Shown: positions 25,061 to 43,270, counted from the stretch's first letter. The stretch is DNA of 58,356 nt from an uncultured Nitrospiraceae bacterium (GCA_964347155.1 CAYFXR010000161.1:1-58356), one strand, 5' to 3'. The notes: a model not told the origin generated them from the letters alone. Made by a program: numbers and translations.

Positions 25061-25164
25061 TTCTTATTCCTTTTTTTCACTCGTTATACTTTAATCGCTA
25101 TTCGAAATAAATAAGAAAGATAACGAATAACATATAAGGGCAACCTTTAACAATTTAAGAATTT

Positions 25165-25434: not shown

Positions 25435-26159
25435 TAAAAACTCCTCATCATCGAACCTACTACCAGGTTCCACCCGTCAACAAGCACAAACAAAAGCAGT
25501 TTAAATGGAAGTGATATCATAACCGGGGGAAGCATCATCATTCCCATACTTAAAAGTATGCTCGCAACAACCATATCTACTACAAGAAAAGGCAAAAACA
25601 ACAAGAAGCCAATTTCAAACGCAGTTTTGAGTTCGCTTATTGCAAAGGCCGGAATAAGGACACTCATTGTTAATTCAGCAGGTGTTTCCGGAGACGGCTT
25701 TTTTGACAGGCCGGAAAACAACGCAATATCTTTTTTCCTTGTTTGTTTCAACATAAAATTTTTTAACGGCGGCACTGCCTGCTCAAGAGCATCTCCCAAA
25801 TTTATTTCTTCTTCAATATATGGTGTTACTGCATTTTCATTAATAACATTAATAGTCGGTGACATAATAAAGAATGTAAGAAATAGTGAAAGTCCAATAA
25901 TTACCGGGTTTGGCGGTACCTGCTGCCCCCCGAACGCATGGCGCAAAAAAGACAGTACAACAACAATACGGGTAAAAGAGGTAAACATAATCAGCACTGC
26001 CGGTAAAAAGGAAAGAAAACTTATTAAAAGAAAAACCTCAATGAGAGGACTATTAATATCCTTGAAGTCAATTGCATACACAGGAGAGGTCATCACAAGA
26101 AGCAAAAATAAAATAGCGGTAATCGTTACAAACTTCAATATACAATTTTTCATTTCCAA
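25434..26159 (-). CDS. fliP: flagellar export apparatus protein FliP
   Basis: 241 aa with FTRIVVVLSFLRHAFG and the C-terminal MMMLPPVMISLPFKLLLFVLVDGW. Confidence 0.96.
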   Translation of the reverse strand: MEMKNCILKFVTITAILFLLLVMTSPVYAIDFKDINSPLIEVFLLISFLSFLPAVLIMFTSFTRIVVVLSFLRHAFGGQQVPPNPVIIGLSLFLTFFIMSPTINVINENAVTPYIEEEINLGDALEQAVPPLKNFMLKQTRKKDIALFSGLSKKPSPETPAELTMSVLIPAFAISELKTAFEIGFLLFLPFLVVDMVVASILLSMGMMMLPPVMISLPFKLLLFVLVDGWNLVVGSMMRSF

Positions 26160-26467
26160 TTTCTTTGCACCCTAATACTTCTGAACTTTTCCAATTTACT
26201 CTGAAACCCTTCAATCTCTTTTAATTCAAGTTCGCCGTCTTTAAAGATTCTTAATAGTCTCATATCATTCGATGTAACGCCCAGTATCAATATTTCATTC
26301 CCGATCTTTAATGCTGCTACACCTTTTTTAGGACCGAATGGCTGATAGCTGACTACACTCATAAGACCATATCTGTTTTGTTTCTTCTTCAGCAGAAATC
26401 CGACAACAATTATCAAAAAGATTACAAAGGTAAGGGCTACAGCCATTTGTATATAAGTCCCTGTCAT
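26150..26467 (-). CDS. fliO: flagellar protein FliO
   Basis: 105 aa with a single TM helix, located between fliN and fliP. Confidence 0.7.
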   Translation of the reverse strand: MTGTYIQMAVALTFVIFLIIVVGFLLKKKQNRYGLMSVVSYQPFGPKKGVAALKIGNEILILGVTSNDMRLLRIFKDGELELKEIEGFQSKLEKFRSIRVQRNWK

Positions 26468-26847
26468 CTCAGCTGTGTCAACCTTTCTGACGGACTAACG
26501 ACATCCGTAAGCCTTATACCAAATTTTTCATTCACCACAACTACTTCTCCCCTTGCGATAAGCCTGTTGTTTGCTAATATCTCCATTGGTTCGCCTGCAA
26601 GTTTTTCTAATTCTATAACTGATCCCTGACCAAGCTGTAAGAGCTCTTTTATCAGCATCTTTGCATTTCCAAGCTGTACGGTAATCTCAACAGGGATATC
26701 GAGCAGAAAATCTATATCCCTTGAAGCTGTTTGCTTATTGTCCTCTCTCAAGTCTTCAAACTCATGCTGCTTAAACTCTTCTTCTTGCTTCACATCTTCT
26801 TCTTGCTTCACATCTTCCTCTTGCTTAATATCTTCTTCCATAAACAC
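26464..26847 (-). CDS. fliN: flagellar motor switch protein FliN
   Basis: 127 aa with a SpoA-type C-terminus (LDIPVEITVQLGNAKMLIKELLQLGQGSVIELEKLAGEP). Confidence 0.92.
   Translation of the reverse strand: MFMEEDIKQEEDVKQEEDVKQEEEFKQHEFEDLREDNKQTASRDIDFLLDIPVEITVQLGNAKMLIKELLQLGQGSVIELEKLAGEPMEILANNRLIARGEVVVVNEKFGIRLTDVVSPSERLTQLR
26778..26831 (-). repeat. 18-nt tandem repeat x3 in the fliN 5' region
   Basis: CTTCTTCTTGCTTCACAT x2 plus a variant copy, encoding (EEDVKQ)3. Confidence 0.85.
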
Positions 26848-26874
26848 CCCTTTCCTTATAATTTTCTTATTTTG

Positions 26875-27849
26875 TCACTCAAAAATATTTGTTACCTTTA
26901 TCGCCTGATTCCCCTTGCTGTATCCCGGTACACCTTTAAACTTTGGAGAACCTTCTACTTTAACAATAAGTTCATCTGATACAGATTTCCCAAGATTTAA
27001 CACGTTACCAACCTCAAAATGTATCAATTCCCCAAATGTAACAACTAACTTCCCTATCTCTGCTACTACATTTAAGCGAGTCTCCTTTAAAACCTCTTTC
27101 ATCATGAGCGCCCATCTGTGGTCTGTTTCGAATTTGTCACCATGTATACCTGAATAAAGTTTTTCTTTTATTGGCTCCACCATTGAATACGGGACACAAA
27201 AGAACAACCTGCCTGTAAAATCTTCTATCTCTATGTTGATTTCTATGTTAATTATGATTTCACCAGGTGTAACAATAGAAACAAACTGCGGATTTATCTC
27301 GGAGTTAATGTACTTCGGCTGGACAGGTACTATTATTTTCCAGGCTGTTTGTACATCTTTCAATATTATATTTACTACCTTATTAATGACCCTCTGCTCA
27401 ATCGGCGTAAATGCCCTCCCCTCTGTTTTTATATGCTGTGCATTAGCTGCTCCAAAGAAAAACTCGATAAACGCAAAAACAAGTGGCGCCTCTAATACAA
27501 GCAGCGAATAACCCTTGAGTGGTTCCATCGTAAAGATATTTATACTGGATGGCATGGGGATGGTCTTTATAAAATCACTATATTTTATTGTCTCGATACC
27601 TTGAATATTTATATCAATGTACTTCATGATTAGTTTAGAAATAGAACCTCTCAGCAATCTTGAAAATGTGTCATTTACCCTTTCGAGACCGGGCATCTTG
27701 CCACGGATAATGCGTTCCTGGTTTGCAAAGTCATATGGGAGTTCATCCCCTACTATTTTTTCTTTTGCTTCTTCTGTATCTATCTCTCCTGATGCTACGC
27801 CTTTCAGGAGAGCATCAACTTCATCCTGTGAAAGTATTTTTTCTGTCAT
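26875..27849 (-). CDS. fliM: flagellar motor switch protein FliM
   Basis: 324 aa with the N-terminal LSQDEVDALL CheY-P-binding motif. Confidence 0.95.
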   Translation of the reverse strand: MTEKILSQDEVDALLKGVASGEIDTEEAKEKIVGDELPYDFANQERIIRGKMPGLERVNDTFSRLLRGSISKLIMKYIDINIQGIETIKYSDFIKTIPMPSSINIFTMEPLKGYSLLVLEAPLVFAFIEFFFGAANAQHIKTEGRAFTPIEQRVINKVVNIILKDVQTAWKIIVPVQPKYINSEINPQFVSIVTPGEIIINIEINIEIEDFTGRLFFCVPYSMVEPIKEKLYSGIHGDKFETDHRWALMMKEVLKETRLNVVAEIGKLVVTFGELIHFEVGNVLNLGKSVSDELIVKVEGSPKFKGVPGYSKGNQAIKVTNIFE

Positions 27850-28337
27850 TGCATTACAAATTCAGTAAAAAATAGATTTTTGAAAACATCCTTATCCTTA
27901 CCCATTATTTGATTGACTCTAAAAAGCACCTCATCTTTGAGCTGAAACTTTCCCTCTGGACTTGCTATTGAATTTAAAGATTTACTGCTTACAAGTGTTA
28001 TGATTGTATCTCTCAATTGAGGTGTTTTTGCCTTTACAGTATCTTGTAAGGATTTATCGGCTATTTCAAATTGTATAGTTACTTTAAGGTATCTCCCTTG
28101 ATCCGCGAGATTTAAAACAAAAGGGGCAAGTGCAAAAATTTCAGTCTCACGACTGACCTCTGCTTCATTTGTAATTTCTTTGTCCCCTTTGGCAGCCAGT
28201 AGTTTGTAACCAATAAATCCTCCAGCACCGATAACAATGGAAGCTGCAATAATAATTATTAGTAGTTTTTTATTTCCACTTTTTTTCTTCGATTCCTCAG
28301 GTGTTTCATCCTGAGGTTCATCTCTTTCATCTGCCAT
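27846..28337 (-). CDS. fliL: flagellar basal-body-associated protein FliL
   Basis: 163 aa with a single TM helix and a FliL-type C-terminus, located upstream of fliM. Confidence 0.88.
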   Translation of the reverse strand: MADERDEPQDETPEESKKKSGNKKLLIIIIAASIVIGAGGFIGYKLLAAKGDKEITNEAEVSRETEIFALAPFVLNLADQGRYLKVTIQFEIADKSLQDTVKAKTPQLRDTIITLVSSKSLNSIASPEGKFQLKDEVLFRVNQIMGKDKDVFKNLFFTEFVMQ

Positions 28338-28711: not shown

Positions 28712-30901
28712 CTACCTAGACAATGCAGGGGTCACAGATTTCCTGATATTATTTGAAAGATTTACTGTATCCTCCCAGGTATTTCCACCGTCAGTTGACC
28801 GCCTGAAATATATCTCATAATTATCCGTTGCAGCATACTGCCACACTACGTAAATCTCTGTTCCAGCAATCGTAATAACAGGGTTCTTTGACTCCCCTTT
28901 CATGGTGTTCAGTCTTACTGTAGCACCCCAGGTATTTCCACCGTCAGTTGACCGCCTGAAATATATCCTGTAATTATCCCTTTTACCATACTGCCATACT
29001 GCGTAAATGTCTGTCCCTTCAACCGCTATGGCAGGGTTCTTTGACTTCCCTTTCATGGTGTTCAGTCTTACCGTAGCACCCCAGGTATCTCCTCTGTCGG
29101 TTGACCGCCTGAAATATATCCTGTAATTATCCCTTTCACCATACTGCCATACTGCGTAAATGTCTGTTCCCTCAACCGCTATGGCAGGGTTCTTTGACTT
29201 GCCTTTCATGGTGTTCAGTCTTACTGTAGCACCCCATGTATCTCCTCCATCGGTTGACCGCCTGAAATATATCCTGTAATTATCCTTTATACCATCCTGC
29301 CATACAAGATTTATTAATGATAAGCAGTCAGTATCATCTAAGTCTGTGGAACCATCGCAGTCGTTATCTAAAGAGTCATTACAGGTAATTTCTTGATTTT
29401 CATCCTTTATGTCTGGAGAACATGTATTAATTACCTCACCTCCCTGACAAGTCAACATGCCTGTTGATACACATTCACCCAAACCACAATTTGTCGTCGA
29501 AGTGACATAATGTTCATCAGCGGTTCCATCACAGTCGCTGTCTACACCGTCACAGTCAGAATCGTCTCCTGTCGGGCTGCCTTCTGTACAGGAGTCAACT
29601 TCTATACCATTAACACAGATTTTCTGACCTGTAGAAGTGCATGCTCCTCGTCCACATTCAGTATCTGTTATTACATAATCCTCATCATCAAATCCGTCAC
29701 AGTCATCATCCATACCGTCACAAGTTGCATCATCTGGAGCAGCTCCTGCAAAAGGGTCGCATGTGTCTATCAAGCTTCCGCTCTGGCACTCAAGCTGGCC
29801 GGTATTGTTATTACATGCACCTGTTCCACAACTGGTTTGTGTTGGTACATAATCTTCATCAGCACTACCATCACAGTCATTGTCAATGCCATCACAATTG
29901 CTATCATCTGCGCTTGGATGGACAGTGTCATCATTATCATTGCAGTCAACATCAGGAAGATATCCGTCTCCGTCAATATCAACCGGGATGAACTGCTTTA
30001 TTTGATTGTTTTTTGTATCAGCGATATAGACATTTCCTGATGAGTCTACTACTACTCCATGAGGATAATTCAACTGACCGTCTGCTGTTCCATATGAACC
30101 CCACTTAACGACAAAACTGCCATCAGATTTCAACCTCTGTACCCTGTTATTATTCGAATCAGCAACATAGAGATCTCCGGATGTTCCTACTGATATTCCA
30201 TATGGATAATTAAACTGACCATCGCCTGCGCCGTTAGAACCCCATGATGCGACAAAATCACCGTTAGCACTGAACTTCTGGATTCTATGGTTTCCTGTAT
30301 CAGCAACATACACATTACCTGATGCATCTTCTACTGCTATCCCATATGGATAACTAAACTGACCGTCGCCTGTACCGTTTGAGCCCCATGCGGTAATAAA
30401 TACACCATTTGAATTGAACTTCTGAACCCTGTGAAGACCTGAATCAGTAACATACACATTTCCAGATGCATCCACGGTTATTCCCTGTGGATAGATAAAC
30501 TGTCCGCTACCTGTACCATATGAACCCCATTCTGTAATAAAATCGCCAAGAGAACTGAATTTTTGGACCCTATTATTTCCCCAATCAGCAACATACACAT
30601 TACCTGATGCATCTACAGCTATCCCATATGGATAACTAAATTGGCCGTCACCTGTACCGTATAAGCCCCATGAAGTGACAAAATTACCGTTAGCACTGAA
30701 CTTCTGGATTCTGTTATTATTCGAATCAACCACATAAACATTGCCGGATATATCTAATGCTAATTTATATGGATTATTAAATTGACCGTTACCTGTACCT
30801 TTTGAGCCCCATTTATTGTTAAATTGATATTCGACAGCATGCACACACGTGTAAAGAAATAGCATGATAAAAGTAACTGATAAGATAAGGCCCTTTTTCA
30901 T
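28712..30901 (-). CDS. secreted multidomain protein: NHL repeats + MopE-type Cys/Asp-rich metal-binding motifs + BNR/Asp-box repeats
   Basis: 729 aa with a signal peptide. Six NHL-like units (GxGxGQFxxPxGIAVDxSGNVYVAD), four CDGxDNDCDG modules and four 51-aa units containing STDGGxTW. Confidence 0.8.
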   Translation of the reverse strand: MKKGLILSVTFIMLFLYTCVHAVEYQFNNKWGSKGTGNGQFNNPYKLALDISGNVYVVDSNNNRIQKFSANGNFVTSWGLYGTGDGQFSYPYGIAVDASGNVYVADWGNNRVQKFSSLGDFITEWGSYGTGSGQFIYPQGITVDASGNVYVTDSGLHRVQKFNSNGVFITAWGSNGTGDGQFSYPYGIAVEDASGNVYVADTGNHRIQKFSANGDFVASWGSNGAGDGQFNYPYGISVGTSGDLYVADSNNNRVQRLKSDGSFVVKWGSYGTADGQLNYPHGVVVDSSGNVYIADTKNNQIKQFIPVDIDGDGYLPDVDCNDNDDTVHPSADDSNCDGIDNDCDGSADEDYVPTQTSCGTGACNNNTGQLECQSGSLIDTCDPFAGAAPDDATCDGMDDDCDGFDDEDYVITDTECGRGACTSTGQKICVNGIEVDSCTEGSPTGDDSDCDGVDSDCDGTADEHYVTSTTNCGLGECVSTGMLTCQGGEVINTCSPDIKDENQEITCNDSLDNDCDGSTDLDDTDCLSLINLVWQDGIKDNYRIYFRRSTDGGDTWGATVRLNTMKGKSKNPAIAVEGTDIYAVWQYGERDNYRIYFRRSTDRGDTWGATVRLNTMKGKSKNPAIAVEGTDIYAVWQYGKRDNYRIYFRRSTDGGNTWGATVRLNTMKGESKNPVITIAGTEIYVVWQYAATDNYEIYFRRSTDGGNTWEDTVNLSNNIRKSVTPALSR
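28715..29302 (-). repeat. 153-nt near-identical tandem repeats (3 full + 1 partial) in the 3' part of the NHL/BNR gene
   Basis: The W codons of successive WQxG units lie at 29302 and 29149 (153 nt apart). The protein units are nearly identical (WQYG[EK]RDNYRIYFRRSTD[RG]G[DN]TWGATVRLNTMKGKSKNPAIAVEGTDIYAV). Confidence 0.85.
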
Positions 30902-31445: not shown

Positions 31446-32030
31446 TTATCCAGTATCAATCAATCCCTTTTCAATTGCGATAGCGACAGCCTGGGTTCTG
31501 GTTATCGCATCAAGTTTCTGCATAATATTATTAATATGGAAATTTACCGTCCTTTCACTTATTTCAAGAATTATTGATATATCCCAAGAGCTTTTGCCTT
31601 TTTTTAGCCACTTCAACACTTCTTTTTCTCTCAAAGAGAGTGGAGAAATATTCATTTTTTTACTGAGATAATGGCTCTGCAGGGCTTCATTAATATTTGA
31701 AATTATTTCTCTATCCTCAAAAGGCTTGGTGATATAATCAAATGCTCCCAACTTTATCGCTTTGACAGCATCTTTAATATCTCCATAGCCTGTAAGCATG
31801 ACTACAATTAAATCTTTATTTATCTTCTTAATTTCTTCAAGAACGTTAAGCCCGTTCATTCCGGGAAGCTTGACATCCAATAAAATCAGATTGGGCAATT
31901 CTTTCTTTACTTTTCTTAGAGCCTCTTTACCATTGCCAGCAACAATGGTTTTGTATCCCTCTAATCTTAGAGATTTTGAGAGAATCAACCGCATGTCCTT
32001 ATCATCATCAACGATCAGAATTTTATTCAT
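31446..32030 (-). CDS. response regulator, NarL/LuxR family (REC + HTH)
   Basis: 194 aa. Receiver domain ILIVDDD...LLDVKLPGMNGL and a LuxR-type HTH (LSLREKEVLKWLKKGKSSWDISIILEISERTVNFHINNIMQKL). Confidence 0.9.
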   Translation of the reverse strand: MNKILIVDDDKDMRLILSKSLRLEGYKTIVAGNGKEALRKVKKELPNLILLDVKLPGMNGLNVLEEIKKINKDLIVVMLTGYGDIKDAVKAIKLGAFDYITKPFEDREIISNINEALQSHYLSKKMNISPLSLREKEVLKWLKKGKSSWDISIILEISERTVNFHINNIMQKLDAITRTQAVAIAIEKGLIDTG

Positions 32031-32088: not shown

Positions 32089-32667
32089 TCAACTTTTCTC
32101 TATAAATCCGCCACCATCTTCCTTTATAAAAAATAACAGTATAGTTGAAAAAGCTACGACTATTGAGGCAAGATAAAACAAGGATTTAAGGCCATAGAGT
32201 TTAACCAAATAACCGCCTAAAAAAAGACCCGCTGCCGAAGAAAGACCAACTATTGCATTAAACTTACCTATACTCCTTCCTCTTTTTGCCTTTACTGTCA
32301 AATCTCCTAGTAATGATGTACTTATGGTACTTGCCATACCGTTTGTTATTCCAAGCATGGCCTGAAGAATATATAATTGATAGACATTGTTTATAATTGT
32401 ATAAAGAAAGAGAACAACTGCGTCTGTATATGCAGTAAGAAATAAAAAGAATTTTCTTCCCAATTTATCAGAGAAACGGCCTGCAAGATAAGTAGTTGCT
32501 GATTGAACGAGCACCATAATGCTGAAAGCCAAACCAAGTTTTTCCATCCCGCCGCTCAATTTCTCAACCTGCAACACGTAAAAAGGCCCGATAAATCCCA
32601 AAACAATTGCCCATATCGAGCTTACCGTGGTAAATACTTTGAGGTTTCTGGCGTTTGATGAGCTCAA
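32089..32667 (-). CDS. half-size (6-TM) MFS-type transporter, possibly truncated
   Basis: Contains the MFS motif-A-like GRFSDKLGRK and six predicted TM helices. The proposed TTG start lies 5 nt after the maturase stop; the ORF-track ATG would overlap the maturase by 76 nt. No second half follows. Confidence 0.5.
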   Translation of the reverse strand: MSSSNARNLKVFTTVSSIWAIVLGFIGPFYVLQVEKLSGGMEKLGLAFSIMVLVQSATTYLAGRFSDKLGRKFFLFLTAYTDAVVLFLYTIINNVYQLYILQAMLGITNGMASTISTSLLGDLTVKAKRGRSIGKFNAIVGLSSAAGLFLGGYLVKLYGLKSLFYLASIVVAFSTILLFFIKEDGGGFIEKS

Positions 32668-32672
32668 TAGTC

Positions 32673-33962
32673 TTAGGCTTTCATCTGATACTTTATATCC
32701 TGTGTGATAAATGACTCTAATGTAGCATCGAGATAAGGCTTTTTGCAATCAACGTCATCAATATTACCGTCCCTCAATAGTCTCATAAATCTGCATCCAC
32801 CAAAACAGAGCGGAAGATACTCGCAGTCAAGACACTTGTCTTTTTTCCACAGGTCGATATTATGGGACTCTCTATAGTCTTTTATGCCTGTCACCAAATC
32901 ACCAACTTCAAAACCTTTCCAACCAACGAACGCAGGGCATTTATAAAACGTTCCATTATAGTTGACGATAATATCATCCTTGAATTCTATTGCACATGGT
33001 AACGGAATAATTTTATGGGTATTAAAACCTCTCTTTAATATCTCTTCTCTGAGATAAATGCTTGCTTCTATAATCCATGGTTCATTTATAGACTCTGCAC
33101 CATCCCTGAAATCAGGCAGTGCAAACTCCTCTAAAACCTTCGTAACCGGATCAAATTTTAAAGTAGAGATCTTATCAGGTGTGATTCCCCTCTCAATCAA
33201 GTAATCGAGGAGAAAAGGAAAGTCTTTATAATTTTCTTTAGTATAGTTACCTCCTATCTGAACTTTTATTAGCTTACAAACATCCTTCACGTTGCGAATG
33301 ATGATATCAAATGTGCCTGAACCTGTTTTAAAAGGCCTATATTCATCATGATTTTCTTTTAATCCGTCTATTGTGATTTTTGCATCTTTTAATCCATAAG
33401 GTAGAAGTTCCTCTGCCCTTTTTTTCGTAAGAAGCGTACCATTAGTTATCAGACCGAATTTGTAGTTTAGACCTTTTCCTTCAGCAGATGTCTTCAACTT
33501 TCTAGAAATGTATTTGATAGTATCAAAACTAAGAAGAGGCTCTCCGCCATAAAAGTCGACATTAACATATTTCCCTCTGATAAGGTATTTTGTAATAAAA
33601 TCTATTAACAGGTCTACTGTTTCCGAAGACATATAATGTTTGCCCTTCATCTTTCCTTCAAAACAGTATTTACAGGCAAGATTGCAGTCAAGGTTCAAGA
33701 CAACAATAGCATTAAAATGTCTCTTTCTGTCAGCCTCCTTAAGAGACTCAAATATTTCTTTATTTTCTTCATTTTCGTTGGGCACTAAAAAGCCGAGACT
33801 AGCTAGTGTTTTCTCATCCGAACTTGAAATGTTACCTTGCCTTATTGATTTTAAAATGGATTTATGAAGAAGGATTTTAGATGCCCTCTTAGTAGAATAA
33901 AAGAGGAGATAATCAGGATTCTCATTATAATGATAGAATTTAATATATCTGGATAATTGCAT
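32673..33962 (-). CDS. radical SAM/SPASM-type peptide maturase
   Basis: 429 aa. The CxxxCxxC motif is at C93/C97/C100 (LDCNLACKYC), after an N-terminal extension of about 85 aa (RRE-like position). The Cys-rich C-terminus reads CPAF...CLDCEYLPLCFGGCRF. Confidence 0.85.
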   Translation of the reverse strand: MQLSRYIKFYHYNENPDYLLFYSTKRASKILLHKSILKSIRQGNISSSDEKTLASLGFLVPNENEENKEIFESLKEADRKRHFNAIVVLNLDCNLACKYCFEGKMKGKHYMSSETVDLLIDFITKYLIRGKYVNVDFYGGEPLLSFDTIKYISRKLKTSAEGKGLNYKFGLITNGTLLTKKRAEELLPYGLKDAKITIDGLKENHDEYRPFKTGSGTFDIIIRNVKDVCKLIKVQIGGNYTKENYKDFPFLLDYLIERGITPDKISTLKFDPVTKVLEEFALPDFRDGAESINEPWIIEASIYLREEILKRGFNTHKIIPLPCAIEFKDDIIVNYNGTFYKCPAFVGWKGFEVGDLVTGIKDYRESHNIDLWKKDKCLDCEYLPLCFGGCRFMRLLRDGNIDDVDCKKPYLDATLESFITQDIKYQMKA

Positions 33963-34022
33963 TTTTTAGAGAGTAAATACAAAAAAGACTTGAGAGCACA
34001 CTTGCACGCAAAACGGGTACAT

Positions 34023-34047
34023 GTCATCCTGAACGAAGCTAAGGATC
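34023..34047 (+). repeat. GTCATCC-type REP-like remnant
   Basis: GTCATCCTGAACGAAGCTAAGGATC, related to the other GTCAT(T/C)CC elements in the window. Confidence 0.4.
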
Positions 34048-34197
34048 TTATAAGCTATTGATTCAAAAAATTCCTAGGCCGCAACTCCGCTTGAACCTGT
34101 ATTACATTGAGCTGAATTTTTGAACTTGTACAAATGCCTCAATTAATAAAATTCAGGATAGTTAGCTTCTCTTTAAATAAATGTTAGTTTATTATTG

Positions 34198-34411
34198 CCT
34201 AAATTGAGCGATTCTAATATGACTAGATGTTCAATGCAGGTTCAAAAATTTATAATGCGATTGGATATTTGTAATTGTCTTACTGCTATATTTAGTCTTC
34301 CACTTAAAGAGTGAAGATCATAAAAGCAAGACAATAACTGTACTAAGGTATCGCTATGTATTTTTTCACCTGCCTCGCACATCTTTATGAAATTAAATCG
34401 CTCAATTTAGG
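34198..34411. repeat. 214-bp segment bounded by a perfect 16-bp inverted repeat
   Basis: CCTAAATTGAGCGATT (34198-34213) pairs with AATCGCTCAATTTAGG (34396-34411). Nested inner inverted repeats ATTGTCTTA/AAGACAAT. The segment begins 6 nt after the candidate precursor stop. Confidence 0.7.
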
Positions 34412-34417
34412 TAATAT

Positions 34418-34519
34418 TTATGCTCTATACACTGTAAAAGCTCCATGGCAGCAAGGCCCCAAGGGACCGATTGAATCTTTGATTCCCTTATCGAGAATTA
34501 TAATTTTTTCCTTGCTCAT
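34418..34519 (-). CDS. candidate RiPP precursor peptide (33 aa)
   Basis: Read by hand: AAAGAGGGGGGCAA-ATG, then MSKEKIIILDKGIKDSIGPLGPCCHGAFTVYRA*. Strong SD, same strand as and upstream of the rSAM/SPASM gene. Below the ORF-track length cut-off. Confidence 0.45.
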   Translation of the reverse strand: MSKEKIIILDKGIKDSIGPLGPCCHGAFTVYRA

Positions 34520-34569
34520 TTGCCCCCCTCTTTAAATAAATTGAGATTTGATCTCCAAAGGAGATATTC

Positions 34570-34598
34570 ACTTTACTATATAAAATTTAATATGTTAA
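34570..34598 (-). promoter_or_regulatory. sigma70-like promoter candidate for the precursor ORF
   Basis: Minus-strand read TTAACA-N17-TAAAGT, immediately after the TonB-receptor stop. The AT-rich context makes chance matches likely. Confidence 0.3.
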
Positions 34599-36494
34599 TC
34601 AAAATGTTAATCTTACCCCTCCTTCTATCCATCTCCCTGGATTCTTAAACACCTCCATCAGATATTGAGAGCCATTAAAGATATTATGAGCACTGAAATA
34701 GAGTTCAATTGCTTTATCATCATTTTTGAAAGTACTCTTTGTCAAATGAATGTCCCATATAAACGAGTTGTATTTTCCCTTGACAAAAGGCGTAGAATTC
34801 CACCATATATAGTGACCCTTAAGCAAAGCCTTAAATGATTTATTGTCACTGTATTGAGTGCCGAAGTCATAGGTGTATTCTGGAATACCTGGGAGTTTCT
34901 CTCCTGTGTCTCTGTTTTTTGCATTAACATATATAAATCCGGTTAATAGAGAAACATTATAAACAGGAATTGTCTTGACCTCTAATTCAAATCCCTGCCT
35001 CCTCTGCTTTTCTTTATTTGCTGATGTAAATGTACCATCAGGCAATTCCTCATCAAAAATTGCATCTGATATATAATGTCTGAACAGACTTGCTCTTAAC
35101 CATAGATATTTAAGTACTGTAGATTCAATGCCTGCCTGAATTGACAGGACCTTTTCAACTTCAAGATCAGGATTAGGCACAGAAAAAAATCCTGTCCCGA
35201 AAGTTTCAGAAAGAGAAGGGATATTGAACCCTCTTGCAACGTATCCTCTTAAAATACTTCTTTCATCAAACGTATAAGTAACTCCAATGCTAGGGCTCAG
35301 GAAATCACCATTGGTTGTTGTATGGTCATACCTGATGCCGGGGTTGAAGGAAAATTCATTAATTGTAATCGTGTCATTGGCAAAAACTGCCCATTTTTCA
35401 AGATGCTGCATCTCATCTGTAATGCTATTTGATTCCAATTCGCCATTATCATAATCCGCACCAACAACTATGTTATTTATACCTTGCTTCCACATAAGCT
35501 TCATACTACCACCGTTTCCTGTATCGTCAAAAGTACTTTTCATTAAATTATCACCTGTGCTCATTTGATCCCAGAAAAACTCTGTATTTTGTCTTGATGT
35601 CCTGAGAGAAAGGCTTAAATCTGCCGCATCGGTTATTGAATAATTCATAGATAAAGTGGAAAAGAGATACTCAAAATCATTGCTGAATGAAAGGTCAAAC
35701 TCAGGGTCTTCACCTCTCCCCCTTGAACCCTTATTGTATCCAAAGGTAAATATGATATCTGTCTTGTTGTTAATATCCAGTTTTAATTTTGTGTACAGGT
35801 TATTTTCAAAAAAATTGGTATTTGGCCTGAGGCCGCCAGATGTGAGATTCCCTGCATAAATATAATAGCCAAAATTATTCTCTCCACCTGATACCTCAGC
35901 CCTGTAATCTCCGGTACCCCTTTCTCCATAAGATGACAAAATGGCACCTCTCATCTTTTCCTCTCCTTCTACAGGTTTAGTTATTATGTTTATCACTCCA
36001 CCAAGAGATGAACCCCATGAAGATGAGGCAGAACCTTTTATAACTTCTACCCTCTCTATATTTTGAACAGGTATTGCGCTTATGTCGGCAAAGTTGTCTG
36101 AAAGATTATTGAATGTAACGCCGTCTATCATAACCAGTACATGTTTGAAATCAGATCCCTGTATAAGTGCCCTTGTTTCACTGCCCGGTCCGCCTCTGAT
36201 ATCCATCTGTACGCCAGGGACGATATTAAGGACATCTGTTAATGTATGTGCATTCATATCTTTAATATCTTTTGCGGTAATAACGGAAATATTTTCTGCA
36301 ACCTGAGAAATAGGCTTAATGGTTCTAGTGGGTGTAACAACCAGTTCATCTTCTTTAAAGTACATCTTTAGTATTTTTATTTCTTCTTCAGTTTGGGCAG
36401 AGGTAAAAGTAGGATAAAGTATTATATTAAGTAATAAGCATAGTGAAAATAAGAGATAACGTAGATGTACGTTTCCTGTTTTAATTTTGATCAT
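34599..36494 (-). CDS. TonB-dependent outer-membrane receptor
   Basis: The start is set at MIKIKTGN, with SD AGGTGA 7 nt upstream. Signal peptide, plug region (ISVITAKDIKDMNAHTLTDVLNIVPGV), a beta-barrel and a C-terminal ...GGVRLTF. Confidence 0.9.
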   Translation of the reverse strand: MIKIKTGNVHLRYLLFSLCLLLNIILYPTFTSAQTEEEIKILKMYFKEDELVVTPTRTIKPISQVAENISVITAKDIKDMNAHTLTDVLNIVPGVQMDIRGGPGSETRALIQGSDFKHVLVMIDGVTFNNLSDNFADISAIPVQNIERVEVIKGSASSSWGSSLGGVINIITKPVEGEEKMRGAILSSYGERGTGDYRAEVSGGENNFGYYIYAGNLTSGGLRPNTNFFENNLYTKLKLDINNKTDIIFTFGYNKGSRGRGEDPEFDLSFSNDFEYLFSTLSMNYSITDAADLSLSLRTSRQNTEFFWDQMSTGDNLMKSTFDDTGNGGSMKLMWKQGINNIVVGADYDNGELESNSITDEMQHLEKWAVFANDTITINEFSFNPGIRYDHTTTNGDFLSPSIGVTYTFDERSILRGYVARGFNIPSLSETFGTGFFSVPNPDLEVEKVLSIQAGIESTVLKYLWLRASLFRHYISDAIFDEELPDGTFTSANKEKQRRQGFELEVKTIPVYNVSLLTGFIYVNAKNRDTGEKLPGIPEYTYDFGTQYSDNKSFKALLKGHYIWWNSTPFVKGKYNSFIWDIHLTKSTFKNDDKAIELYFSAHNIFNGSQYLMEVFKNPGRWIEGGVRLTF

Positions 36495-36521
36495 ATTACA
36501 ATCACCTATTCCTGTCATAAA

Positions 36522-36687: not shown

Positions 36688-37617
36688 GTGTTAAAAATAA
36701 ACAAAAATCATCAACTTTTAAATTTATATAATTGGCTCATTGTATTATTCATTCTGTCTTGCCACTCCATAGTGTCTGCCGATGGAATTGTAGCAGTCCA
36801 GAGCTTTCTTATTAAACCCTATAATGATGCCCTGGAAGGTTTTAAAAGTATTTGTAACTGTAATGTAAAAGAGTTTGTTGTTTCTGAAATAGAAGGAGCA
36901 GATATAATAAGCGAGATTCACAAAGCAAAACCTGAAATTATTCTCGCCATAGGCATTGATGCACTTGAAAGGATTAAAAATATTAAAGATATACCTATTG
37001 TTCATATGATGATTCTGAATCCGCAATCCGTGACGTCCTACAATAAGAATATCACCGGCGTAAGTCTGTATATATCTCCCGAAAAACAGTTATCCTTCTT
37101 GCGGAAAGTACTGCCCGAAGCAAAAAACATTGGACTTCTGTACGATCCGGCAAGAACAGGAGATTTTGTTGAGAAAGCAAAACGTGCTGCCACAGCAACA
37201 AGTATTAAACTATTTGCAAAGGAAATTCATAAATCAAGAGATTTCTCCGCTCTTTTAAACGGTATGAAGGGAGAGATAAATGCCTATTGGATGCTGCCGG
37301 ATTTAACTGTTGTTACTCCTGAAACGGTTGAATTGTTATTCCTCTTTTCTATCGAAAACAGAATTCCGGTAATTACTTTCTCAAACAAATACCTTGAAAT
37401 GGGTGCCTTGATGTCATTTGATATTGATACCCGTGACATAGGAAAACAGGCAGGAGAAACAGCCAATAACATACTGTCCGGAATGGATGTAAAGAACATG
37501 AAAATGACTGATGCAAGAAAAATAAATATCAATATTAACCGGAAAACAGCAAAGAAGCTTGGAATAACCATGAATGAGCGTATGTTCGGTAACGAAAGGT
37601 TAATGAACCAACAATAA
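36688..37617 (+). CDS. periplasmic substrate-binding protein (ABC_sub_bind-like), sensor-associated
   Basis: 309 aa with a signal/TM N-terminus and a family-typical ...IPVITFSNKYLEMGALMSF...INRKTAKKLGITM. Located 4 nt upstream of the histidine kinase. Confidence 0.7.
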   Translation: MLKINKNHQLLNLYNWLIVLFILSCHSIVSADGIVAVQSFLIKPYNDALEGFKSICNCNVKEFVVSEIEGADIISEIHKAKPEIILAIGIDALERIKNIKDIPIVHMMILNPQSVTSYNKNITGVSLYISPEKQLSFLRKVLPEAKNIGLLYDPARTGDFVEKAKRAATATSIKLFAKEIHKSRDFSALLNGMKGEINAYWMLPDLTVVTPETVELLFLFSIENRIPVITFSNKYLEMGALMSFDIDTRDIGKQAGETANNILSGMDVKNMKMTDARKINININRKTAKKLGITMNERMFGNERLMNQQ

Positions 37618-37621: not shown

Positions 37622-39181
37622 ATGAGGTTTCTGAAACACAATAAAATAAGCTTTGGCACGAAGATTTTTTATGTATTTACTATTTTCATCGTACTCACCT
37701 ATATCTCCTTCTCATCATTTTTTATTTATTATCAAAGTAAAACTTTGAAAAAAAATCTTATAAATGAAGGCAAATTGCTTATAGACCTTCTTTCATATAG
37801 CTCAAGACTCGGCGTGTTTGCAGAGAATGCAAATTTACTGAAAGACCCCATAGAAGGCATTATGCATAACAAAGAAGTAATGCTCGTACAGGTATTTACT
37901 GATAACGGCAGACAATTGAAAAAGCAAGAGAGAACCGGGAAAGAAACGAATGAAAAATCTTCAAAAAAGTATTTCACAAGACACGACAAAATAATGAATA
38001 TGATAAAAAAATCGAAATCAACCTATTATTCTGAAGACAATGATACATTCGAATTCTGGGCACCTGTTATTTCAAAAAGAACTAAGTCTGAAGAAGAAGG
38101 TTTATTTTTCGAAGAAAATGTATCTCAAACTGATGACACAATAATCGGATTTGTCAGGATCATATTTACGACAGAATTGCTGAATAAAAATCTGAAAGGC
38201 ATGTTGTTAAAGAGTATTTTCATCCCGATTACTTTTATGGTACCCGGCTGGTTCATATTATATTTTATAGTCAAGGGAATAACAAGCCCTCTTAACAGGC
38301 TGTCAGATGGTGTTACAGCAGTTGGAACAGGAAGTTCAGTGGAAAGGGTATCTGTTGAAACAAAGGATGAAATAGGCAAACTTGCACAGGCTTTCAACGA
38401 TATGGTCGAATCATTAAAGACTAAGGATGTTGAAAAACAACAGATTGAAGAGCAGTTGAGACAGGCGCAAAAGATGGAGGCAATCGGGACGTTTGCCGGA
38501 GGGATTGCTCATGATTTTAATAATATCCTGAACGTAATAATAGGTTATGGAAATTTATTACTGAAACAAATGAATTCTCAAGATTCTGAAAGAGACTATC
38601 TTGATAACCTGCTATCTACGGCAAAAAGGGCATCATACCTTACAAAGAGCCTCCTTACATTGAGCAGACAACAAGAGATAAACCTTGAGCCGGTAAATAT
38701 CAATGATATTATCAGGAATTTAGAGAAAATCCTGGTGAGTCTTATGAGTAAAGATATAGAAATCAGCACTAACCTTTCAGAGGAAGACCTCGTTGTTATG
38801 GCAGATACAGGCCAAATAGAGCACGTCCTGATAAACCTTGTAACAAATGCACGGGATGCAATGCCTCATGGAGGAACGTTCACAATATCTACAGAATGTG
38901 TCAATAAGGATAAACAATTTATCATATTCTCCGGTCATGGAGATCCCGGTCAATATGCCGTGATATCTGTTACGGATACAGGTATCGGTATGAACGATCA
39001 GATTAAAGAGAAAATATTCGATCCTTTTTTCACAACAAAAGAGCAAGGTAAAGGCACGGGTCTTGGGCTCTCCATGGTATACGGGATCATCAAACAACAC
39101 AATGGCTATATCAATGTCAGCAGCAAACCAGGCCAAGGGACAATATTTAAAATTTACCTCCAGCTAAGCAAACTTCGTTAG
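37622..39181 (+). CDS. sensor histidine kinase (TM-sensor-HAMP-HisKA-HATPase)
   Basis: 519 aa with H-box FAGGIAHDFNNIL, N-box LVTNARDAM and G-boxes DTGIGM/GTGLGLSMV. Confidence 0.92.
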   Translation: MRFLKHNKISFGTKIFYVFTIFIVLTYISFSSFFIYYQSKTLKKNLINEGKLLIDLLSYSSRLGVFAENANLLKDPIEGIMHNKEVMLVQVFTDNGRQLKKQERTGKETNEKSSKKYFTRHDKIMNMIKKSKSTYYSEDNDTFEFWAPVISKRTKSEEEGLFFEENVSQTDDTIIGFVRIIFTTELLNKNLKGMLLKSIFIPITFMVPGWFILYFIVKGITSPLNRLSDGVTAVGTGSSVERVSVETKDEIGKLAQAFNDMVESLKTKDVEKQQIEEQLRQAQKMEAIGTFAGGIAHDFNNILNVIIGYGNLLLKQMNSQDSERDYLDNLLSTAKRASYLTKSLLTLSRQQEINLEPVNINDIIRNLEKILVSLMSKDIEISTNLSEEDLVVMADTGQIEHVLINLVTNARDAMPHGGTFTISTECVNKDKQFIIFSGHGDPGQYAVISVTDTGIGMNDQIKEKIFDPFFTTKEQGKGTGLGLSMVYGIIKQHNGYINVSSKPGQGTIFKIYLQLSKLR

Positions 39182-39424: not shown

Positions 39425-40747
39425 ATGGCTCAGGAATTTCAACTCACAGAAATTGATACAGAATTTGAAGAGAAAGTCTATGTAATAGCAGACGAGATTC
39501 TTAAAATACTCAAGGAACTATCTCAAGAAAACAAGAGACAGATAAGCAGTAAGAATATAGCAGATAAGATGTTTCGGAAGGATTCTGTTAAAAATGTCCT
39601 AAATAGTCGTTACCATGAAACATCAGAAAATGGCGAGGAGACGCGGTGTCTCAAGGAATTTTCTAATATGGTTCTTAATAAGGTTACTGAAATTGTGCCG
39701 ACCCCTGTCATAGAACAGTTAAGTAATTTGAAGAAACAGATCCATAATAAAGAAATTATTGGAGGTTCTAAAGAGTGGTTTGAAACACCATTCAATATTA
39801 TTAAAAAATATATATATGCTCTTTCAAGCCGTAACCAAGAACTTGAGGAATTTATGCAGCAAACGATGCTGTATCTCACAAATACAGAGACACACATAAA
39901 AGGCGAATTATCTTCCCGGCAGCGAAAATTTTATGATGACAGGGACTTCGAAAATATTATAGCTAAAAATATGAATGTGATAAAGGATAATATCAATATC
40001 TCTGGCGACTTCAATAGGGTCAGGATGGCATTCATGGACAAGATAGAGAACATTAACAAATGTATCAAGCAAAAGAGGCAGCAGGATATGTTAAATTTAA
40101 AAGAAACAGAAAAAACTTTGGAAGAAATGAGCAAGAAAATGACAGAAATTAAACGTGAAGCCGATGACATAAGGAAGCAATCACAGGAGATAGAATTTGA
40201 ATCTGTCCGTGATGCTCTCACAAGGCTTTATAACCGGAAGGCTTATGACGAGAAAATTATAGAAACACTGGCCCATTTTGAACGGTATAATGTGTCTTCC
40301 TCTTTGATGCTATGTGATATAGACTTTTTTAAAAAAATAAATGATAATTTCGGGCATCAAATAGGAGATCTTGCCCTCAAGAAACTCGCTGTTCTTTTAA
40401 ATGAGAGATTAAGGAAAAATGATTTTATATCAAGATATGGAGGAGAAGAGTTTGCCATTATTCTTCCCCATACAAATCTGGACGGCGCTTTTAATGCAGG
40501 TGAAGGCATCAGGTCTTACATTGATAAATCAGAGTTTTCTTATAAAAATCAAACAATCTCTCTTACAATAAGTGTGGGAATCAGCTCCTTCATGAAAGGG
40601 GACAATAGCAACACAGTCTTTGAAAGGGCAGACAGTGCCCTTTACCTTGCCAAAAGGTCTGGCCGTAATACGGTAAAAACTGAAAAAGATGTCATCGAAG
40701 AAGGAACAGTCTTACATGAAGACCCACTTGATGAGAGATCTGATTAG
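39425..40747 (+). CDS. diguanylate cyclase (coiled-coil N-terminal region + GGDEF)
   Basis: 440 aa with an RYGGEEF active site and the RKND I-site 5 residues upstream. Confidence 0.9.
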   Translation: MAQEFQLTEIDTEFEEKVYVIADEILKILKELSQENKRQISSKNIADKMFRKDSVKNVLNSRYHETSENGEETRCLKEFSNMVLNKVTEIVPTPVIEQLSNLKKQIHNKEIIGGSKEWFETPFNIIKKYIYALSSRNQELEEFMQQTMLYLTNTETHIKGELSSRQRKFYDDRDFENIIAKNMNVIKDNINISGDFNRVRMAFMDKIENINKCIKQKRQQDMLNLKETEKTLEEMSKKMTEIKREADDIRKQSQEIEFESVRDALTRLYNRKAYDEKIIETLAHFERYNVSSSLMLCDIDFFKKINDNFGHQIGDLALKKLAVLLNERLRKNDFISRYGGEEFAIILPHTNLDGAFNAGEGIRSYIDKSEFSYKNQTISLTISVGISSFMKGDNSNTVFERADSALYLAKRSGRNTVKTEKDVIEEGTVLHEDPLDERSD

Positions 40748-40990: not shown

Positions 40991-42415
40991 ATGCATACGG
41001 CTAAGTTTACAAAACTAATCAGAAATCTCGATCACGAAGATGCATCAAAAAGGCGATCTGCTGCAGAAGCCCTTTCTGAAGGAGATGAAAGAGCTATTTA
41101 TCCCTTAATTAAGGCCTTGAGAGATGACAATTTTGGAGTACAGGATGCTGCAATGCGTTCTCTTATGGAGATAAAAAGGGAATCTACCGCATATATGATA
41201 CTCCCTCTTCTCAGGGAAAACGCTTTTTTAAGAAACACTGCACTTATTATTCTAAGAGAATTAGGGAAAACCACTGTTCCTCTTCTTCACGCCCTGTTAA
41301 GTGATAAAGACGATGATGTAAGAAAATTCGCCCTGGACCTCATTTATGATATCCAATATTGTGATTACCCTGAAAAATTGGCTGAGATGCTCACAGATGA
41401 TCCAAATTCAAATGTAAGGGCAGCTGCTGCAAAAGTTATAGGGATATTACAATTCAGAGAAGCAATTCCTCAACTCCTCAGTGCCTTAGAAGATGAGGAA
41501 TGGGTATGCTTCTCTGCCCTTGAAGCACTCACCAATCTAAGAGATGCAAACTCAGTAGAGTCTATTGCAGTTCTTTTGAAGAGTCCCTCAGAGACAATTC
41601 GTTTTGCAGCTATTGAGGCTCTCGGAAAAATCGGTTCATTAAAAGCAGAGAAACCTCTCGTTGAACATATATCAAAAACTTACGGTCTTCAAAAGATGGC
41701 ATTGATAAAAAGTCTTGTACAGATAGGAACTATTCCCTCAATACCGGGTATATCTGATGTTCTCATTGATATGCTCAAGAATGATGACTGGGAAGAAAAA
41801 TTCATTGCCATTAAAGGTTTGACTTATTTGAAAGAAAAAAAGTCAATCCATTATATAGTCGACGCCGCAGGTTCTCTCGATTTGTCAGATCCGGAAAATG
41901 AAAACAAGCTGTATGTGCTCAGAGAAGCAATTAAAAGTTTTGGCTGCACTAAATCCCTCATAGATATTCTTGATGACAAAACCTTTAAATATCGGGGAAA
42001 GGTCTTTGCGATAGAGACAGTAGGAGACTTAAAGTGCAAAAATGCAGTCTCCGTTCTCATCAAACTTCTCAAAAGCGGATACAGGGATATAAGAAGATCC
42101 AGCATAAAATCACTAAGTCAAATTGACAGTGATGAAACCAAAGAATATTTCATTGAAGCAATTAATGACCATGACAGCCACGTCAGGAAGACAGCTGTTA
42201 CTGCACTTGGAAAGATAAACGATATGGCAGCCTTTGAACCTCTCATGAAAATGCTACACAACGAAAAATACAATGACGTAATTGACGAGTTTGTTAAATC
42301 GCTTCTGAAGATTAATTCTACATTATTTATATCACGTATCAACGAGTTCAACGATTATATTAAAGAGAGTGCCGGAAGATATGCAGAATTCCTCAAACCG
42401 GAGGTTACATGTTAA
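40991..42415 (+). CDS. HEAT-repeat (PBS-lyase-type) protein, first gene of the che operon
   Basis: 474 aa with repeated units (D.D..VR..A..ALG.I). Its stop overlaps the cheR start. Confidence 0.8.
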   Translation: MHTAKFTKLIRNLDHEDASKRRSAAEALSEGDERAIYPLIKALRDDNFGVQDAAMRSLMEIKRESTAYMILPLLRENAFLRNTALIILRELGKTTVPLLHALLSDKDDDVRKFALDLIYDIQYCDYPEKLAEMLTDDPNSNVRAAAAKVIGILQFREAIPQLLSALEDEEWVCFSALEALTNLRDANSVESIAVLLKSPSETIRFAAIEALGKIGSLKAEKPLVEHISKTYGLQKMALIKSLVQIGTIPSIPGISDVLIDMLKNDDWEEKFIAIKGLTYLKEKKSIHYIVDAAGSLDLSDPENENKLYVLREAIKSFGCTKSLIDILDDKTFKYRGKVFAIETVGDLKCKNAVSVLIKLLKSGYRDIRRSSIKSLSQIDSDETKEYFIEAINDHDSHVRKTAVTALGKINDMAAFEPLMKMLHNEKYNDVIDEFVKSLLKINSTLFISRINEFNDYIKESAGRYAEFLKPEVTC

Positions 42416-43224
42416 ATATTCCTCTTTCTGATTCAACATTCAAAAATATAAGGGACTGTATATATGAAAAATGTGGTATCTATATATCCGACACCAAAAA
42501 ATATCTTATCGAAAACAGGCTTGCAAGAATAATACAAGAAAATAATATAAAAAGTTTTGAAGATTACCTGCACATTATCAAAGGTAATTCCAACGGCTCA
42601 GAACTCAACAGGCTCTTTGACGCCGTCACGACAAATGAAACTTATTTTTTCAGGGAGCCACAACAACTTGATGTATTTGCTGACGAAATATTACCTAAAT
42701 TATCGAGACAAAAAAAGAGAATGAAAATATGGTCTGCAGCATGCTCTACTGGTGAAGAACCATATACAATTTCAATGATAATGGTAGAGAAACTGTTAAG
42801 TCCAAGAAATTTTGATATCTATGCTTCAGACATAAGTCAAGGAGTTTTACATTCTGCACAGAATGCCGTTTATAACTCTTATTCCGTGAGAAATATACCT
42901 GAATCTTATCTTAAAAAATATTTTTCAAACAATGGACACCTTTATCATCTTAACTCCTTTGTTAAAAATACCGTTCAATTCATAAAAATAAATCTTATCG
43001 ATGAAAAAAAAATGAAATCATTCCGGGGAATAGATGTTATCTTCTGCCGCAATGTACTTATTTATTTTGATACCAAGGCAAAACAGAAAACAGTCTCATA
43101 TCTTTACGATAGTTTAAAACCCGGAGGTTATTTATTTATAGGGGTTTCCGAAAGTCTTCACAATGTAACGAGGGCATTCAGGCCATGTGTTATAAACAAA
43201 GTCATTATATATCAAAAAGCATGA
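42409..43224 (+). CDS. cheR: chemotaxis protein methyltransferase CheR
   Basis: 271 aa with TNETYFFREPQQ and IWSAACSTGEEPYT motifs. Confidence 0.93.
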   Translation: MLNIPLSDSTFKNIRDCIYEKCGIYISDTKKYLIENRLARIIQENNIKSFEDYLHIIKGNSNGSELNRLFDAVTTNETYFFREPQQLDVFADEILPKLSRQKKRMKIWSAACSTGEEPYTISMIMVEKLLSPRNFDIYASDISQGVLHSAQNAVYNSYSVRNIPESYLKKYFSNNGHLYHLNSFVKNTVQFIKINLIDEKKMKSFRGIDVIFCRNVLIYFDTKAKQKTVSYLYDSLKPGGYLFIGVSESLHNVTRAFRPCVINKVIIYQKA

Positions 43225-43270
43225 AAATGAAAGAAACACAAATGTTTTTTTTATTTGGGAGGGGAACGGC

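Follow-up and report, generated by a model that had tools for sequence, protein, structure and literature searches.

The locus described here raises the question of whether a 33-codon open reading frame (ORF), left uncalled by gene callers between a TonB-dependent receptor gene and a radical SAM (rSAM)/SPASM gene, encodes a RiPP precursor on which the rSAM/SPASM enzyme acts, and what role its product might play. We refer to the whole 58,356-nt stretch of DNA that was analyzed as the window. The minus strand reads aaaGAGGGGGGcaaATG, in which a G-rich, Shine-Dalgarno-like run is followed by an ATG at 34519-34517; from there, the frame translates as MSKEKIIILDKGIKDSIGPLGPCCHGAFTVYRA up to a TAA stop at 34420-34418 (Table 1). 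Both the sequence and the ORF listing agree with the minus-strand ATG frame described in the first-pass annotation, which had also placed it 80 nt from the stop of the receptor gene (ORF end 34599) and upstream of the rSAM/SPASM gene. The gap to the receptor stop was measured as 79 nt, in keeping with that figure. The rSAM/SPASM gene is indeed the next gene downstream, at a distance of 455 nt that the annotation had not mentioned, and among the conserved ORFs upstream of it, the peptide ORF is the closest, on the same strand. As a 14-kb stretch of this AT-rich DNA contains 127 ORFs of at least 25 aa, a frame of 33 codons is by itself not beyond chance; it is the conservation that makes it significant.

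Table 1. Coordinates of the peptide gene, its neighbors and the repeat element in the window.
Feature	Coordinates	Strand	Remarks
Response regulator, LuxR/GerE DNA-binding domain	31446..32030	-	194 aa; near the system in many loci
Half-size MFS-like membrane protein	32089..32748	-	MFS_1, half of the profile; overlaps the maturase stop
Geopeptide radical SAM/SPASM maturase	32673..33962	-	429 aa; TIGR04280
MITE-like near-palindromic repeat element	34193..34416		224 nt; directly after the peptide stop codon
Precursor peptide gene	34418..34519	-	33 aa; ATG start; stop included in the coordinates
Shine-Dalgarno-like GAGGGGGG	34523..34530	-	End 3 nt before the peptide ATG
TonB-dependent receptor	34599..36518	-	639 aa; Plug and TonB_dep_Rec_b-barrel domains; directly upstream of the peptide
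PF04392 (ABC_sub_bind) periplasmic solute-binding protein	36688..37617	+	Divergent from the receptor gene
Membrane sensor histidine kinase	37622..39181	+	519 aa; directly after the binding protein; kinase family matches

The product of the rSAM/SPASM gene matched the NCBIfam model TIGR04280, “geopeptide radical SAM maturase”, a “hypothetical equivalog”, with 607.2 bits against a cutoff of 400 (E = 1.7e-182), residues 1-426 aligning with model positions 1-428. More than 2000 database proteins are similar to the maturase at E <= 1e-40, several of which are named geopeptide radical SAM maturase. The CX3CX2C motif (C93/C97/C100) is invariant among 20 homologues, as are the SPASM cysteines C323, C342, C377, C380, C386, C390 and C406, which form the seven-Cys pattern CX13GX4C...CX2CX5CX3C...C and imply the presence of two auxiliary Fe-S clusters. 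In an AlphaFold2 model of the maturase (pLDDT 78), the N-terminus (residues 7-79) adopts a beta-beta-beta-alpha-alpha-alpha arrangement, with strands at residues 7-11, 18-23 and 28-33 and helices at residues 34-42, 47-55 and 63-79 (pLDDT 67-90 for this block). The modeled topology is RRE-like, resembling that of PqqD, and this part of the enzyme is predicted to bind the leader. The full-length fold agrees with those of the RRE-containing enzymes CteB and SuiB. CteB was the best match among solved structures both in sequence (5WGG, E = 2e-31, at an identity of about 23%) and in full-length fold (5WHY, E = 4e-19), followed in the structure matches by SuiB, ChlB, TigE and anSME. The next-best NCBIfam families (TIGR04463, PapB, CefB and the SCIFF maturase) all scored far below their cutoffs.

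Orthologous TIGR04280 loci came from collections of genomes and metagenomes, together with contig look-ups. The first-pass annotation had proposed to look for homologous small ORFs beside orthologous maturases, and this search was positive throughout: in all 24 loci that have enough upstream DNA, the maturase gene is closely preceded by a short ORF that encodes a Cys-Cys pair near the C-terminus. In all relatives inspected, the peptide ORF is preceded at 5-9 nt by a GGAGG-type ribosome-binding site, and the distance from the end of that ORF to the maturase start was 54-216 nt in the 13 spacers measured. Examples of the encoded peptides are MKEKKIIILDKGIKETIGPLGWCCHGAFTVFRK (locus L163, the enzyme of which is 75% identical to that in the window), MKIRVLSKGIKKSAGPKATCCYAAFLPYRK (L001), MSDVVVILDEGVKEEELAQTACCPSSTSRA (L083) and MENETVELEVLDEGQSNEEENNTCCMSGLTRIF (L009, from Geotalea toluenoxydans). 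A family HMM was built from the peptides of 22 relatives, leaving out the window peptide, and run against all 1608 stop-to-stop ORFs in the window. The peptide ORF was the sole significant match (54.2 bits, E = 6.8e-16), with the runner-up at E = 0.06. An HMM made from the 13 most distant peptides alone still detected the window ORF with 25.5 bits (E = 6.6e-7).

At the nucleotide level, 12 of the 21 differences between the window ORF and that of its closest relative, L163, fall in third codon positions, and 7 of the 10 changed codons within codons 5-30 are synonymous, while the amino-acid changes are mostly located at both ends of the peptide. This substitution pattern fits purifying selection. 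The exact window peptide is absent from a collection of 15 billion proteins that does include the rSAM enzyme and the binding protein from the same contig; thus, the peptide was missed by the gene callers. When 1.84 billion cluster representatives were searched with phmmer, no more than three short peptides sharing the motif were retrieved, and such ORFs are evidently seldom called. We considered the possibility that the frame is a chance ORF that gives no product, since short ORFs are plentiful in the AT-rich window and gene callers had left this one out. The comparative data have already refuted this idea, however, considering the conservation, the unique HMM match, the codon-position bias and the three independent database peptides with the motif, and we regard its likelihood as negligible.

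A second way to account for the conservation is that the ORF serves regulation, as an upstream or leader ORF, or encodes a small protein unrelated to the maturase, its conservation reflecting control of the downstream genes rather than a role as substrate. The hairpin and T-run that follow the ORF in relatives (see below) could in principle act as a translation-coupled attenuator, but the hairpin sits after the stop codon, and an alternative anti-terminator pairing is not evident. Furthermore, a specific motif and an invariant Cys-Cys pair are kept at the amino-acid level across phyla while the DNA diverges, and the partner enzyme is a member of a family of peptide maturases and has a predicted RRE-like domain, all of which makes a purely regulatory ORF highly improbable. 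Taken together, the homologous ORFs at orthologous maturases, the unique HMM match and the codon-position bias lead us to count the ORF as a real gene. We estimate the probability that its product is a RiPP precursor peptide modified by the adjacent maturase at roughly 85%. The earlier suggestion of a candidate precursor for the adjacent rSAM/SPASM enzyme has therefore held up, with a homologous ORF at every locus where it could be sought and an enzyme that is a TIGR04280 peptide maturase.

A hairpin attenuator between the precursor gene and the enzyme gene is usual for RiPP precursors. Such a hairpin with a T-run (AAGGGGAG...CTCCCCTTTATTTTT) was present between peptide and enzyme in 13 of 13 relatives, in a spacer of 54-88 nt in 12 of these and of 216 nt in L004; two of the hairpins were folded and gave z = -3.5 and -5.4. 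A pattern scan of the peptide-maturase interval in the window found no minus-strand intrinsic terminator. The site of the hairpin and T-run is occupied here by the near-palindromic repeat element listed in Table 1, which was missing from the first-pass annotation and the insertion of which explains why the spacing is so much longer than in the relatives. The element has inverted termini of 21 nt that are 95% complementary and extend to 61 nt at 44/61 identity, and a possible 5-bp duplication (ATAAA) is seen on its flanks. The terminus recurs in a further copy at 18376-18436, and a shortened copy is located at about 34091-34144. The RNA fold of the element has an energy of -73 kcal/mol (z = -9.4). 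By these sequence features, it looks like a MITE insertion. The genes around it are all intact; nevertheless, the 455-nt separation with the repeat element in it makes co-expression of peptide and enzyme less certain in the window than in the relatives.

Several other elements near the peptide gene were inspected. A second or degraded copy of the peptide in the spacer was sought and rejected, as the family HMM gives one match only. The 14-nt direct repeat D1 has no similarity beyond its 14 nt. An Rfam scan of 33800-34700 returned no RNA family match. Upstream of the ribosome-binding site there is a palindrome, ATCTCC-TTT-GGAGAT (34551-34565), which is kept in the three closest loci with one change that is apparently compensatory. 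It was rejected as an RNA structure, since its fold was no better than that of shuffled sequences (z = -0.1 to -1.4); it is possibly a regulator-binding site.

The window peptide consists of a leader with the motif I-I-I-L-D-K-G-I at residues 6-13, the Cys-Cys pair at residues 23-24 and a tail of 9 residues. Across the family, the leader motif reads hydrophobic-x-hydrophobic-L-(D/K)-x-G-hydrophobic, the Gly is separated from the first Cys by 7-12 residues (mostly 10-12), and the tail after the Cys-Cys pair comprises 7-10 residues, usually with a basic residue at the end. Only L9, G12, C23 and C24 are conserved family-wide, and no conserved acceptor residue was found in the tail among the aligned family peptides. 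In the subgroup to which the window belongs, the Cys-Cys pair is preceded at a distance of four to five residues by an invariant Gly-Pro, and the tail has the form CC-x-(G/A)-(A/G/S)-F, usually with Arg-x at the end. The leaders of this subgroup are Lys-rich and basic, whereas those of the Geobacter type are rich in Glu and Asp; Geobacter-type peptides also lack the Gly-Pro. The layout of leader, hinge and core described in the first-pass annotation is thus broadly supported by the conserved leader motif (I6-G12) and the Cys-Cys pair, but the GP hinge is invariant within the subgroup only.

What the first-pass annotation did not mention is that a geopeptide family already exists in NCBIfam, in the form of TIGR04229 and TIGR04280, so the system in the window is not a new kind. 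Our literature searches retrieved no experiment or publication on this family. The peptide model, TIGR04229 (“geopeptide”), has 22 model positions and a cutoff of 30 bits. It assigned 40.5 bits to the Geotalea peptide from L009 (WP_012648279.1, for which “geopeptide” is the NCBI name) and 32.1 bits to that from L090. Intermediate peptides (L091, L083 and L008) scored 20-25 bits, and a peptide from the window's own subgroup (L165) scored 12.6 bits. The window peptide itself gave no match in scans of NCBIfam and Pfam at E <= 10, TIGR04229 included, and hence falls short of the cutoff. However, when a profile of the window subgroup (A3, 10 sequences) was compared by hhalign with a profile of the Geobacter/Desulfuromonadales type (A4), the two matched with 94.7% probability (E = 5.7e-8), with the LDxG motif and the CC in register. 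The window ORF also has the position of a geopeptide, being a short (~30 aa) peptide immediately upstream of a TIGR04280 maturase, albeit across the 455-nt spacer, and it shares the (I/V)L(D)xG motif and the invariant CC with recognized geopeptides. A profile-profile match in the absence of a TIGR04229 match indicates a homologous, divergent member and a curated model that is too narrow. Judged by these alignments, the window peptide is a member of a divergent, Nitrospirota-type branch of the geopeptide family, and the TIGR04229 model appears to cover the Geobacter-type peptides only.

This has consequences for annotation. The curated model misses the whole Nitrospirota/Deferribacteres-type branch, with the result that the maturases in those genomes look like orphans, and a broader profile made from the 25 peptides collected here would close this gap. 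The family also offers features that can be tested, namely a very short core (Cys-Cys plus a tail of ~9 residues), a fixed spacing from leader to core, and strictly conserved partners. The value of the analysis lies in this gap in the curated peptide model, in the family-wide anatomy of the peptide, and in the strict link with the receptor, binding protein and kinase module described below.

The modification reaction can be outlined by analogy with CteB. The RRE would bind the LDxG segment of the leader as a strand, and the nearly constant spacing from leader to Cys would put Cys23-Cys24 into the active site, where a Cys thiolate might ligate an auxiliary Fe-S cluster in a CteB-like manner. 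The 5'-deoxyadenosyl radical would take an H atom from a nearby residue, and formation of a C-S bond would lead to one or two thioether bridges of the sacti- or ranthi-type. A role of Cys23 and Cys24 as thioether donors, which the first-pass annotation had put forward, is plausible, since the nearest families and structures (PapB, CefB, the SCIFF maturase and CteB) are Cys-thioether formers. In the absence of a conserved acceptor in the tail, the partner in the thioether, and even the type of chemistry, are less constrained; one option is a sactionine-type link to Cα, for which the acceptor residue may vary. By analogy with these enzymes, we give thioether formation a little under an even chance.

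SPASM enzymes also oxidize Cys, as in anSME, or make C-C links, as in SuiB. The maturase might accordingly act on the Cys-Cys unit itself, generating formylglycine (anSME-like), a thio-oxazole (SbtM-like) or another heterocycle or cross-link, which would yield a metal-binding or chromophoric dipeptide unit. Consistent with this, the two Cys are the only invariant residues of the core and no acceptor position is conserved, although sactionine-type Cα links accept variable acceptors, so that thioethers are compatible with a tail that has no conserved acceptor. Structures of anSME were significant matches by both sequence and fold, but the closest families and structure (TIGR04463, PapB, CefB, SCIFF and CteB) are all thioether formers. 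The co-conserved TonB-dependent receptor is typical of metallophore systems, which fits a metal-binding product. In addition, SbtM, another rSAM/SPASM enzyme from Geobacter, takes 4 Da off the Cys in a GG(U/C)G motif, producing a thio-oxazole (PMC9204691). The SbtM system was the only Geobacter rSAM peptide system found in the literature; it was rejected as a relative of the present one, as it belongs to a different family. On balance, chemistry confined to the Cys-Cys unit seems rather unlikely to us, and thioether formation is the likelier reading for the maturase.

The first-pass annotation had not recognized the receptor, the binding protein and the kinase as conserved parts of a module. 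The receptor gene adjoins the peptide/maturase pair in 22 of the 22 loci that extend far enough, and its best family matches, all sub-threshold, are to the BtuB, siderophore and haem receptor families. Of 23 loci, 19 encode the PF04392 binding protein, and those without it have short flanks. Orthologues of the histidine kinase have HAMP-HisKA-HATPase(-REC) domains and are always located beside the binding protein, and a LuxR-type response regulator usually accompanies the pair. No ABC permease or ATPase was found in any of the loci inspected. The conserved core of the loci examined contained no protease, and outside the window's subgroup it contained no exporter. A half-size MFS gene follows the maturase gene in the window's subgroup only. 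Its product is called as 186-189 aa in relatives, and the true start in the window is probably near 32676; we consider this protein a candidate exporter.

Three gene arrangements were observed. In arrangement A, that of the window, HK< SBP< are divergent from TBDR> peptide> rSAM> (half-MFS>) (LuxR>). Arrangement B reads TBDR> peptide> rSAM> SBP> HK> LuxR>. In arrangement C, found in Desulfuromonadales/Geotalea, (HK<) SBP< TBDR< are divergent from peptide> rSAM>. The linkage between module and pair was found in Nitrospirota, in a Deferribacteres MAG and in Desulfuromonadales/Geotalea. A reverse look-up that started from homologues of the binding protein retrieved three contexts (a Deferribacteres MAG, a Geobacteraceae MAG and a Nitrospirae MAG), and a TIGR04280 gene was present in all three, in one of them split by a frameshift. 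Locus L172 was considered as a different rSAM system with the same triad of receptor, binding protein and kinase, but was rejected, as it actually contains a TIGR04280 gene split in two. A linkage that persists through rearrangement across phyla points to a functional unit.

Literature searches returned no publication on the receptor/binding protein/kinase module. A point against peptide binding is that the PF04392 proteins with solved structures have single aromatic amino acids as ligands (PMC10443332). The conserved gene neighborhood suggests an autoinducer-like or metallophore-sensing loop, in which the mature peptide would act outside the cytoplasm, possibly exported in the window's subgroup by the half-MFS protein, and would return to the periplasm through its dedicated TonB-dependent receptor. 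There, the orphan PF04392 protein would bind the re-imported peptide and signal via the adjacent histidine kinase to the LuxR-type regulator. Geopeptides would then be the diffusible ligands of an undescribed peptide-signaling or metallophore-sensing circuit of anaerobic Gram-negatives that employs TonB-driven import, a proposal that we put forward tentatively and with less than even confidence. If true, the sensing loop would represent an unusual case in which Gram-negative anaerobes receive a RiPP signal in a TonB-dependent manner, and the geopeptide would be a RiPP autoinducer whose reception depends on TonB-driven import.

The same gene set could also be explained if the mature peptide were a metallophore and not a signal. 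Ligands derived from the thiols would capture metal and the receptor would import the loaded peptide, while the binding protein and kinase would merely report the peptide, in an architecture like that of a methanobactin operon. A dedicated TonB-dependent receptor at every locus that extends far enough, with sub-threshold similarity to receptors of the BtuB, siderophore and haem families, is what such a function would call for, as is the invariant Cys-Cys pair, and the host lineages (Geotalea, Desulfuromonadales and Nitrospirota) are anaerobic and metal-respiring. However, an inner-membrane importer (ABC permease/ATPase) is absent from every locus, the constant pairing of the binding protein with a kinase points to sensing rather than uptake, and a metal-regulator box or other sign of metal regulation is likewise absent. 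We therefore consider a metallophore function unlikely.

Mycofactocin resembles the present system in that MftC, an RRE-containing rSAM/SPASM enzyme, acts on a small peptide, MftA. The first-pass annotation had drawn an analogy between the TVY segment of the window peptide and the Val-Tyr target of MftC, which is C-terminal. This analogy did not survive comparison with homologues: in the window, V30-Y31 is followed by R-A, and the segment is not conserved, the corresponding position in the subgroup being occupied by TVY, TVF, LPY, LPL, IPL or LYM, with unrelated sequences elsewhere. The 25 best-scoring families for the maturase did not include MftC, and the peptide has neither the C-terminal Val-Tyr nor the MftC partner of a mycofactocin precursor.

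SCIFF and its maturase CteB share with the window the combination of RRE, radical SAM and SPASM domains, a substrate that contains Cys, and a precursor encoded beside the enzyme. The window enzyme scored only 122 bits with the SCIFF maturase model, however, against a cutoff of 425. SCIFF peptides have six Cys and a longer core, whereas the two Cys of the window peptide are adjacent and followed by a short tail, and SCIFF loci lack the receptor, binding protein and kinase module. PapB, CefB and TIGR04463 enzymes likewise act on Cys-containing RiPP precursors, but the window enzyme reached only 147, 145 and 170 bits with the respective models, the cutoffs of which are 340, 600 and 525. Their substrates carry repeated CX3D/E or Cys-every-fifth motifs that are absent from the window peptide.

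Methanobactin operons encode a precursor, modifying enzymes, the TonB-dependent receptor MbnT and the periplasmic binding protein MbnE. As in the window, a RiPP precursor with essential Cys is thus combined with a dedicated TonB-dependent receptor and a binding protein. MbnB and MbnC are absent here, however, with an rSAM/SPASM protein as the modifying enzyme, and the binding protein, a member of PF04392, has a histidine kinase as its partner instead of an importer.

The closest counterpart is the geopeptide pair TIGR04229/TIGR04280 itself, with which the window shares a TIGR04280 maturase, full-length here, a peptide of ~30 aa just upstream, and the (I/V)L(D)xG...CC layout. The differences concern the host, which is Nitrospirota-like here and Geobacter there, and the window's subgroup, which is distinguished by the Gly-Pro, the aromatic G-A-F tail and the half-MFS gene after the maturase.

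Between the gene for the 33-aa Cys-Cys precursor peptide and that for its geopeptide radical SAM/SPASM maturase, a hairpin with a T-run terminator is found in all 13 relatives (13/13); in the window, this place is occupied instead by a near-palindromic, MITE-like element, for which the 5-bp sequence ATAAA is a possible target duplication. Two partial copies of the element also occur in the window.

The palindrome upstream of the peptide gene is retained in the closest orthologous maturase loci (L163, L165 and L167), with one change that is apparently compensatory. When it was folded as RNA, no significance was found for the palindrome, which may therefore be a site for a LuxR-type regulator, or a piece of the peptide's own promoter region.

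Positions of features in the window
Feature	Position	Strand	Remark
NHL / MopE-like / BNR protein	28712-30901	-	large, secreted
Four tandem ORFs	30187-30741		40-46 aa
Presumed flagellar block	23122-28337	-	downstream of locus
Terminus of MITE-like element	18376-18436		solo copy
MITE-like element	~34091-34144		shortened copy
MITE-like element	34193-34416		224 nt; starts directly 3' of peptide stop codon
Palindrome ATCTCC-TTT-GGAGAT	34551-34565	-	~20 nt 5' of peptide ribosome-binding site
Promoter-like TTGATT-16-TATAGT	34602-34575	-	
Sensor kinase	37622-39181	+	519 aa
GGDEF protein gene	39425-40747		follows sensor kinase gene
Presumed chemotaxis-type genes	42409-44044	+	

In the NHL / MopE-like / BNR protein, a 47-aa repeat (YRIYFRRSTDGGDTWGATVRLNTMKGKSKNPAIAVEGTDIYAVWQYG) occurs in four almost identical copies. 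The four tandem ORFs, which lie in a different frame from this protein, were rejected as peptide genes, being a by-product of the repeat. From the translations alone, we take the block downstream of the locus to be flagellar export/switch genes (FlhB-, FliR-, FliQ-, FliP-, FliN-, FliM- and FliL-like ORFs), and the chemotaxis-type genes to be CheR-like and CheY-like.

In the homologous locus L172 (2417-3684; Geobacteraceae MAG WSYB01000022.1), two ORFs of 300 and 107 aa, which both match TIGR04280 (model positions 1-274 and 326-427, respectively), make up a split geopeptide maturase; the split is due to a frameshift, to decay into a pseudogene or to an error in the assembly. The peptide of the Nitrospirae homologue L005 (3655-3948) has a far longer N-terminus, with ≈70 additional, extremely Lys/Ala/Thr-rich residues in KKxxAKK repeats preceding the conserved ...CCMGKPYVLK end, and its LDxG leader motif is degenerate.

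The sensor kinase of the peptide locus in the window has no C-terminal receiver domain; most of its orthologues are hybrid kinases of 663-671 aa that carry this domain.
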